Of a stretch of DNA of 64,000 bases, positions 11,703 through 11,971 are shown one piece after another. The notes beneath the pieces are model-generated. The model saw only the letters and a program-made list of their open reading frames with translations. It ran no database searches and had not been told where the DNA came from. How positions within the stretch are numbered: the stretch's first letter is position 1; each line of letters begins with the position of its first letter. The DNA comes from Pseudomonas phage HHBS18_1. The position numbers were made by a program, and so were the translations under genes. The stretch lies in the sequence record PQ287651.1. One strand, written 5' to 3'.

Positions 11703-11971
11703 GACTAAGTAACAACGGTCCATGTAAAACTGTGTGAATTCAGGGGACAGCCAGAACGGCCAATCCTGAGCCAAGCTAGAGTGATCTAGAAAGGTGCAAC
11801 GACTATCGAAACCACGGCGGGAGCCGGAAGGGAGTAGAGTAGGGTCAAGTGACCCGAAGCGCACAGGGCGCGAGAGCGTCATGATATAGTCTGGTCTGCA
11901 TGGGAACATGCAGCGGTAACCCTTGAGCAAGGTTACGGGGGAGGATTAACGACCCTCCCTGAACACAACGG
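11703..11971 (+). other. putative group I self-splicing intron interrupting DNA polymerase motif B
   Basis: 269-nt GC-rich ORF-free insert; proposed 5' exon ends in U and the intron ends in G; the spliced junction restores KYGF/TYGAQAGK, like T7 KTFIYGFLYGAG. Confidence 0.6.

Follow-up and report, generated by a model that had tools for sequence, protein, structure and literature searches.

[quoted passage not shown]

How can a phage produce an intact DNA polymerase from a gene whose reading frame breaks off within the conserved motif B? This question is raised by the genome of Pseudomonas phage HHBS18_1 (PQ287651.1), of which a stretch of 64,000 nucleotides, referred to here as the window, was analyzed; coordinates are those of the window and features lie on the + strand unless stated otherwise. 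The upstream polymerase frame (9703–11712) terminates in ...SPAKNVKYGLTK with a TAA stop codon at 11710–11712, and the downstream frame, which lies in a different frame and is open from 11919, reads ...TYGAQAGKVAKTIG and ends at 12686. The source phage is a Pseudomonas aeruginosa Pakpunavirus: the polymerase region (9703–12686) is 94–99% identical to that of more than 100 P. aeruginosa phages of this genus, with vB_PaM_EPA3 as the nearest relative over this region (98.9%). Elsewhere in the window, Rfam identifies a cluster of 13 tRNA genes (61258–63938, +), as is typical of Pakpunavirus genomes.

A preliminary description of the DNA, made from its letters, had proposed that a group I-like intron splits a family-A DNA polymerase inside motif B, with the first frame ending in ...AKNVKYGLTK and the second resuming about 270 nt later in another frame. 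The arrangement of the two frames is as described there, and the element itself is already known, in that it is common to dozens of sister phages in a well-sampled genus. The literature on the Pakpunavirus polymerase intron that we found consists of a single paper, in which Essoh et al. (2015; PMC4482731) reported that the polymerase of phage Ab02 is split by a 759-bp insert with an endonuclease gene and related this insert to the intron of phage LUZ24; Ab02 carries this long form at the HHBS18_1 insertion site. The ORF-less form is annotated in PQ429081.1 as 'intron_gpI; RF00028', although with the coordinates of the raw Rfam match rather than those of the splice sites. Our literature search turned up no account of splicing in a Pakpunavirus, and the RNA-seq paper on PAK_P4, a phage without the intron, makes no mention of it. 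The analysis presented here makes it very probable that a group I intron of the phage IA2 type, devoid of an ORF, occupies 11702–11970 in polymerase motif B; splicing is predicted at boundaries one base upstream of those first proposed.

Intron identity and splice junction

The preliminary description had named a covariance-model search as a check of the intron. When the whole window was scanned with Rfam, the group I intron model RF00028 (Intron_gpI) matched 11645–11913 (+) with 71.9 bits and an E-value of 2.7e-16. Since the gathering score of this model is 50 bits, the ribozyme identity lies far beyond chance. A more permissive Rfam scan, admitting E-values up to 0.1, yielded no second intron in the window. 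The ends of the match were rejected as intron boundaries, because the model is made to align its 5' end with exon sequence; at the other end, the match stops at P9, 57 nt before the 3' splice site. Taking the model match together with covariation, the intron is placed at 11702–11970 (+, 269 nt), with G11970 as the 3' terminal base (omega-G) that group I membership requires.

Removal of these 269 nt generates a single ORF of 2715 nt, or 904 amino acids. Exon 1 (9703–11701), as defined by the ORF list, the intron-less alleles, and the variant introns, ends ...AAA TAT GGA U, where U11701 is the first base of a Cys codon, and exon 2 (11971–12686) starts GU ACA UAC GGC (..C-T-Y-G). The protein is indeed a family-A polymerase, as had been proposed, with the Pfam domain DNA_pol_A covering residues 548–800 and thereby spanning the junction codon, 667. 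The restored motif B, RSPAKNVKYGCTYGAQ, aligns with RDNAKTFIYGFLYGAG of T7, and the insertion follows the first base of a codon that, by our alignment to the established Pol I motif B numbering, corresponds to F528 of T7 and position 764 of E. coli Pol I. An intein was also considered and is ruled out by the stop codon at 11710–11712 and by the location of the downstream exon in another frame.

Over the intron, neither a 31-aa ORF on the + strand nor ORFs of 103 and 75 aa on the − strand match Pfam or PHROG, and by the same comparison a homing endonuclease gene is absent from the HHBS18_1 intron, in line with the initial view of an ORF-free insert. The claim that the insert is GC-rich holds only marginally, with a GC content of 53.9% compared to 50.5% and 52.4% in the exons.

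Two junctions obey the U...G rule and yield 904 residues, namely 11701|11971, which places Cys at the junction, and 11702|11972, which places Phe there. The choice between them rests on homology, because U11701 and U11702 can both pair with G and because positions 11970 and 11971 are both G; P10, drawn by eye between UAC at 11972–11974 and GUA at 11709–11711, is too weak (~3 bp) to be of help. The second alternative is that of the preliminary description, which had spliced after U11702, removed 11703–11971, and obtained a UUU codon. In its favor, U11702 pairs with G11717, and Phe would not be absurd at this position, since it is the aligned residue of T7 (KTFIYGFLYG, as in Yepe2). However, the intron-less alleles read AAA TAC GGG TGT ACG TAC GGT, or KYGCTYG, and all four of those compared have Cys (TGT or TGC) as the junction codon. 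The Phe junction therefore needs a non-synonymous change among nearby differences that are otherwise synonymous, whereas with the 11701|11971 junction every one of them is synonymous. Moreover, the homologous variant introns of vB_VIPPAEUMC02a (263 nt) and YS35 (710 nt) have just one U at the 5' splice site (...TATGGGT|AAGAG...), and in YS35 904 residues are obtained only with the U|...G|GU (Cys) junction. Exon and guide also covary between variants, AUGGGU/GCCCAU there corresponding to AUGGAU/GUCCAU in the window. We accordingly give the Phe junction little probability. Together, the intron-less alleles, the single-U variant introns, and the exon/guide covariation place the predicted intron at 11702–11970 with Cys as the junction residue (YG-Cys-TYG). 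The expectation that splicing recreates motif B is thus upheld with regard to the motif and the 904-aa frame, but the motif reads KYGCTYG rather than containing Phe.

Ribozyme structure and subgroup

The secondary structure was drawn by hand from the window sequence, in which all pairs are standard, and evaluated by covariation among ten introns: those of the window, two Pakpunavirus variants, LUZ24, Yepe2, PPWS1, Draal02, KIL3, Aes508, and Roth32. These were aligned with MAFFT after endonuclease ORFs had been cut out where present. Standard pairs occupy 93.6% of the cells compared to 31–44% when the partners are slid by 1–3 columns, a comparison that favors the structure, since the window sequence from which it was drawn is itself in the alignment; the ten sequences are, moreover, mutually related. 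Both sides have changed in 45 of the 72 pairs, and none of 500 shuffles attains the observed values. Covariation is heavy in P3, P7.2, P8, and P9.2. Pairing is lower in P1 (81%) and P6a (53%), because MAFFT misaligns the very divergent stubs.

In the P1 hairpin (11696–11723), the exon sequence AUGGAU and the intron bases UG (11696–11703) pair with CGGUCCAU (11716–11723), all eight pairs being standard. This 8-bp helix contains the splice-site wobble, U11701.G11718, and the internal guide sequence, GGUCCAU (11717–11723), and five of seven of its pairs have changed on both sides in the ten-intron alignment. The stretch 'aatcc' (11762–11766), suggested earlier as the guide, is instead the 3' strand of P4, as judged from the drawn pairing and covariation. 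P2 is absent. P3 (11730–11736 with 11860–11866; 98.6% paired, six of seven pairs changed on both sides) encloses P4–P6, the 5' strand of P7, P7.1, and P7.2. Compensatory changes are found in both P4 (11740–11745 with 11764–11769; 100% paired) and P5 (11750–11752 with 11758–11760; 96.7% paired), and alignment with YS35 backs P6 (11770–11772 with 11793–11795) and P6a (11776–11789; CUAGA-GUGA-UCUAG). The P6a loop is the site of the endonuclease ORF in five relatives.

P7, the guanosine-binding helix, pairs GACUA (11801–11805) with UAGUC (11887–11891), is invariant and 100% paired in all ten introns, and forms a pseudoknot with P3. Between its strands lie P7.1 (11815–11818 with 11823–11826; GGGA loop), which is 100% paired with three of four pairs changed on both sides, and P7.2 (11842–11846 with 11851–11855), which is likewise 100% paired with four of five pairs changed. 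The trinucleotide GUA occurs twice between these two helices, at 11834–11836 and 11839–11841. The P8 hairpin (11867–11880) has a GAGA loop and is 97.9% paired, with all five pairs changed on both sides. At the 3' end follow P9 (11896–11902 with 11907–11913; GGAA loop, 100% paired), P9.1 (11916–11924 with 11929–11936), and P9.2 (11939–11944 with 11954–11959; 98.3% paired, all six pairs changed on both sides). Thermodynamic folding gives a z-score of −3.6. The minimum-free-energy fold recovers the local hairpins but misses the long-range helices P3, P4, and P7, as is to be expected for a pseudoknotted ribozyme.

With regard to subgroup, the preliminary description had expected class IC3 or IA2. 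According to PMC3428280, the introns of phiI, W31, and Pf-WMP3 are assigned to IA2 on account of P7.1 and P7.2 between P7 and P3', a GUA linker, and the lack of P2. The HHBS18_1 intron, for which the generic Rfam model was run, fits an IA2-like assignment by the same features, and there is no support for IC3; phage 'IA2' is a heterogeneous category according to a 2025 survey. P7.1 and P7.2 joined by GUA and a missing P2 are also described for the introns of SPO1, SP82, and Bastille, and the SPO1 core matches that of HHBS18_1 at 84% over 51 nt. In phiI/W31 (Bonocora and Shub 2004, as cited in PMC3428280), Pf-WMP3, and SPO1/SP82/Bastille, however, an endonuclease ORF of the HNH family begins in P6a, and self-splicing has been shown by experiment, whereas splicing of the HHBS18_1 intron is predicted from sequence. 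Their insertion sites correspond to positions 881, 674, and 676 of E. coli Pol I, compared to ~764 for HHBS18_1, so that the motif B sites are additional to these published ones.

Alleles in Pakpunavirus and relatives in other phages

Pakpunavirus phages carry three kinds of allele at this site, counted here as database records with RefSeq/GenBank duplicates included. Some 60 of ~125 records are intron-less; among these, PA10, PAK_P1, JG004, MAG1, and PAK_P4 have a single polymerase CDS of 2715 nt, which is exactly the length of the spliced ORF. The ORF-less intron is found in 48 records, comprising 35 of the 269-nt type, whose intron sequences are at least 99% identical, and 13 of a 263-nt type, and the 710-nt form with an endonuclease gene is found in 18. 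The preliminary description's central proposal, a group I intron in polymerase motif B, is thus supported by the RF00028 match, the covarying core helices, and intron-less alleles of spliced length alike.

The long form, present in Ab02, YS35, Ps12, and PaGz-1, shares site and ribozyme with HHBS18_1 (~86% identity outside the ORF), with compensatory differences in P1/guide, P5, P7.2, P8, P9.1, and P9.2. It differs in having an EndoVII-type endonuclease gene in P6a where HHBS18_1 has a GUGA tetraloop. This gene, situated in the P6a loop, encodes 159 aa with matches to Pfam Endonuclease_7 (PF02945; 1.8e-22) and to PHROG endonuclease VII families, and its final 66 nt overlap the ribozyme core. 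The ORF-less 263-nt intron of vB_VIPPAEUMC02a (PQ429081.1) occupies the same site and is 97.6% identical to the 269-nt intron of HHBS18_1 from intron base 19 on, but differs in the P1 loop, guide sequence, and P5. Judged by these relatives, HHBS18_1 harbors a mobile element in its endonuclease-less form. The EndoVII-type gene that sister phages have in P6a is missing from it, so that the HHBS18_1 intron has lost the means of spreading by itself. An Rfam scan at the gathering threshold misses the endonuclease-carrying forms (YS35, Yepe2), whose ribozyme is split by the ORF, and automated annotation will therefore find ORF-less copies only.

Compared to the intron-less PA10, the exons are identical from −326 to +233 relative to the insertion except at −5, −2, +5, +11, and +32, and the differences at −5 and −2 fall in P1. 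This pattern fits acquisition of the intron through homing, accompanied by a short co-conversion tract. Farther upstream, 21 differences from PA10 are found at 11216–11375 (−485 to −326), followed by ~560 nt of near-identity around the intron, and this mosaic boundary may mark a past recombination event. As a separate observation, PseuPha1 (OP756059.1) and the SW_PA2862 series (PV574404–PV574406) have two or three intron-matching places per record, which suggests a second insertion site in these genomes; a preprint mentions an intron-split long-tail-fibre gene for phage LCK69.

Related introns occur in motif B of unrelated phages. LUZ24, from an unrelated phage family (Bruynoghevirus), also has a group I intron in motif B of a family-A polymerase, the core of which aligns with that of HHBS18_1, but its intron lacks the long P7.1 and measures 669 nt with its ORF. 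This ORF, gp35 in P6a, is an EndoVII-type endonuclease 55% identical to the Pakpunavirus enzyme. Splicing of the LUZ24 intron is reported to have been confirmed experimentally by cDNA PCR and long-read cDNA, whereas the HHBS18_1 intron is known from its sequence. The T7-like Yersinia phages Yepe2 and Yep-phi have a motif B intron in gp5, annotated as a joined CDS. In Yepe2 (680 nt with the ORF), the P6a endonuclease is 50% identical to that of Pakpunavirus, and the 3' half of the ribozyme is ~73% identical to that of HHBS18_1. The LUZ24 intron is inserted 6 nt upstream of the HHBS18_1 site, in the codon equivalent to Tyr526, and the Yepe2 intron 11 nt upstream, in the Phe524 codon. Motif B thus holds three staggered sites for one lineage of intron and endonuclease, in agreement with the initial remark that it is an intron hotspot. 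The same ribozyme lineage also interrupts other essential genes in Draal02, KIL3, Roth32, Aes508, and PPWS1, the genes hit in this set comprising an RNA polymerase of the T7 type, a large terminase (annotated as a joined CDS), a helicase region, a split DNA polymerase that contains an intein, and a further DNA polymerase.

Proposed mechanism, alternatives, and significance

On the basis of established group I chemistry, we infer that the HHBS18_1 intron is spliced. The polymerase gene would be transcribed as one pre-mRNA, in which the exon sequence AUGGAU would pair with the guide GGUCCAU to form P1. A free guanosine in P7 would then attack after U11701, and the 3'-OH of the exon would attack after G11970, joining the exons as ...UAU GGA U|GU ACA UAC... 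The product would be one 904-aa polymerase with motif B intact. Translation of unspliced RNA would terminate after ...KYGLTK at the in-frame UAA in the P1 loop (11710–11712), and would thus produce only a truncated protein.

Two alternatives do without efficient self-splicing. The polymerase could be made as two assembling polypeptides of 669 and 229 aa, as suggested by the two CDSs annotated in most GenBank records and by the existence of split phage polymerases, for example in Aes508. However, the sole start for the second part is GTG at 11997, which has no evident Shine-Dalgarno sequence and lies downstream of the motif B Tyr-Gly, so that the conserved element would be lost; a split polymerase is unlikely for these reasons. 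Furthermore, a complete group I ribozyme whose helices covary lies between the two parts, and in sister phages the gene is uninterrupted, with a length exactly that of the spliced ORF. We regard two separate polypeptides as the least probable reading. The intron could also be a decaying relic that no longer self-splices and is tolerated only with the aid of host or phage proteins or by virtue of some splicing at a low level. Endonuclease loss precedes decay in the usual homing cycle, and HHBS18_1 has lost the endonuclease gene. On the other hand, all core helices are preserved, as are the U.G pair, the 3' terminal G, and four GNRA loops, and the variant form scores about as high against RF00028 (73.3 bits). 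The near-uniformity of the intron across 35 records, which come from viable lytic phages and have it in an essential gene, likewise speaks against decay, and we consider a non-self-splicing relic improbable, slightly more so than the Phe junction discussed above. A spliced group I intron is therefore the reading that we adopt.

A more speculative proposal, which we think unlikely, is that one lineage of intron and EndoVII gene has been retargeted among positions 0, −6, and −11 nt in motif B (Pakpunavirus, LUZ24-like, and T7-like Yersinia phages, respectively), and that ORF-less copies, at ~40% of Pakpunavirus records, persist by shielding the essential polymerase from the endonuclease of co-infecting relatives. 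If this were true, the intron would be a passive immunity allele in phage–phage competition and not a neutral relic.

The main value of the finding concerns annotation. In most of the ~48 records with an ORF-less intron, the polymerase is entered as a pair of genes or as hypothetical proteins. In K8 (KT736033.1), the first part is labelled 'DNA polymerase B family protein', whereas Pfam puts the spliced protein in family A. In phage JS (OQ210008.1), the 31-aa ORF in the intron (JS segment 3092–3187; window 11794–11889, +) is labelled 'HNH homing endonuclease', an annotation that looks spurious, as the ORF spans P6', P7, P7.1, P7.2, P3', and P8 and is without Pfam or PHROG support. The correct product would be one family-A polymerase of 904 aa with Cys as its junction residue, and because Pakpunavirus phages are candidates for phage therapy, correct gene models matter. 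The evolutionary point is a modest one: because all three stages of the homing cycle, namely empty, intron with endonuclease, and intron without endonuclease, are found at a single site, Pakpunavirus is a convenient natural system in which to study how introns are gained, how endonucleases are lost, and how phages compete with one another.
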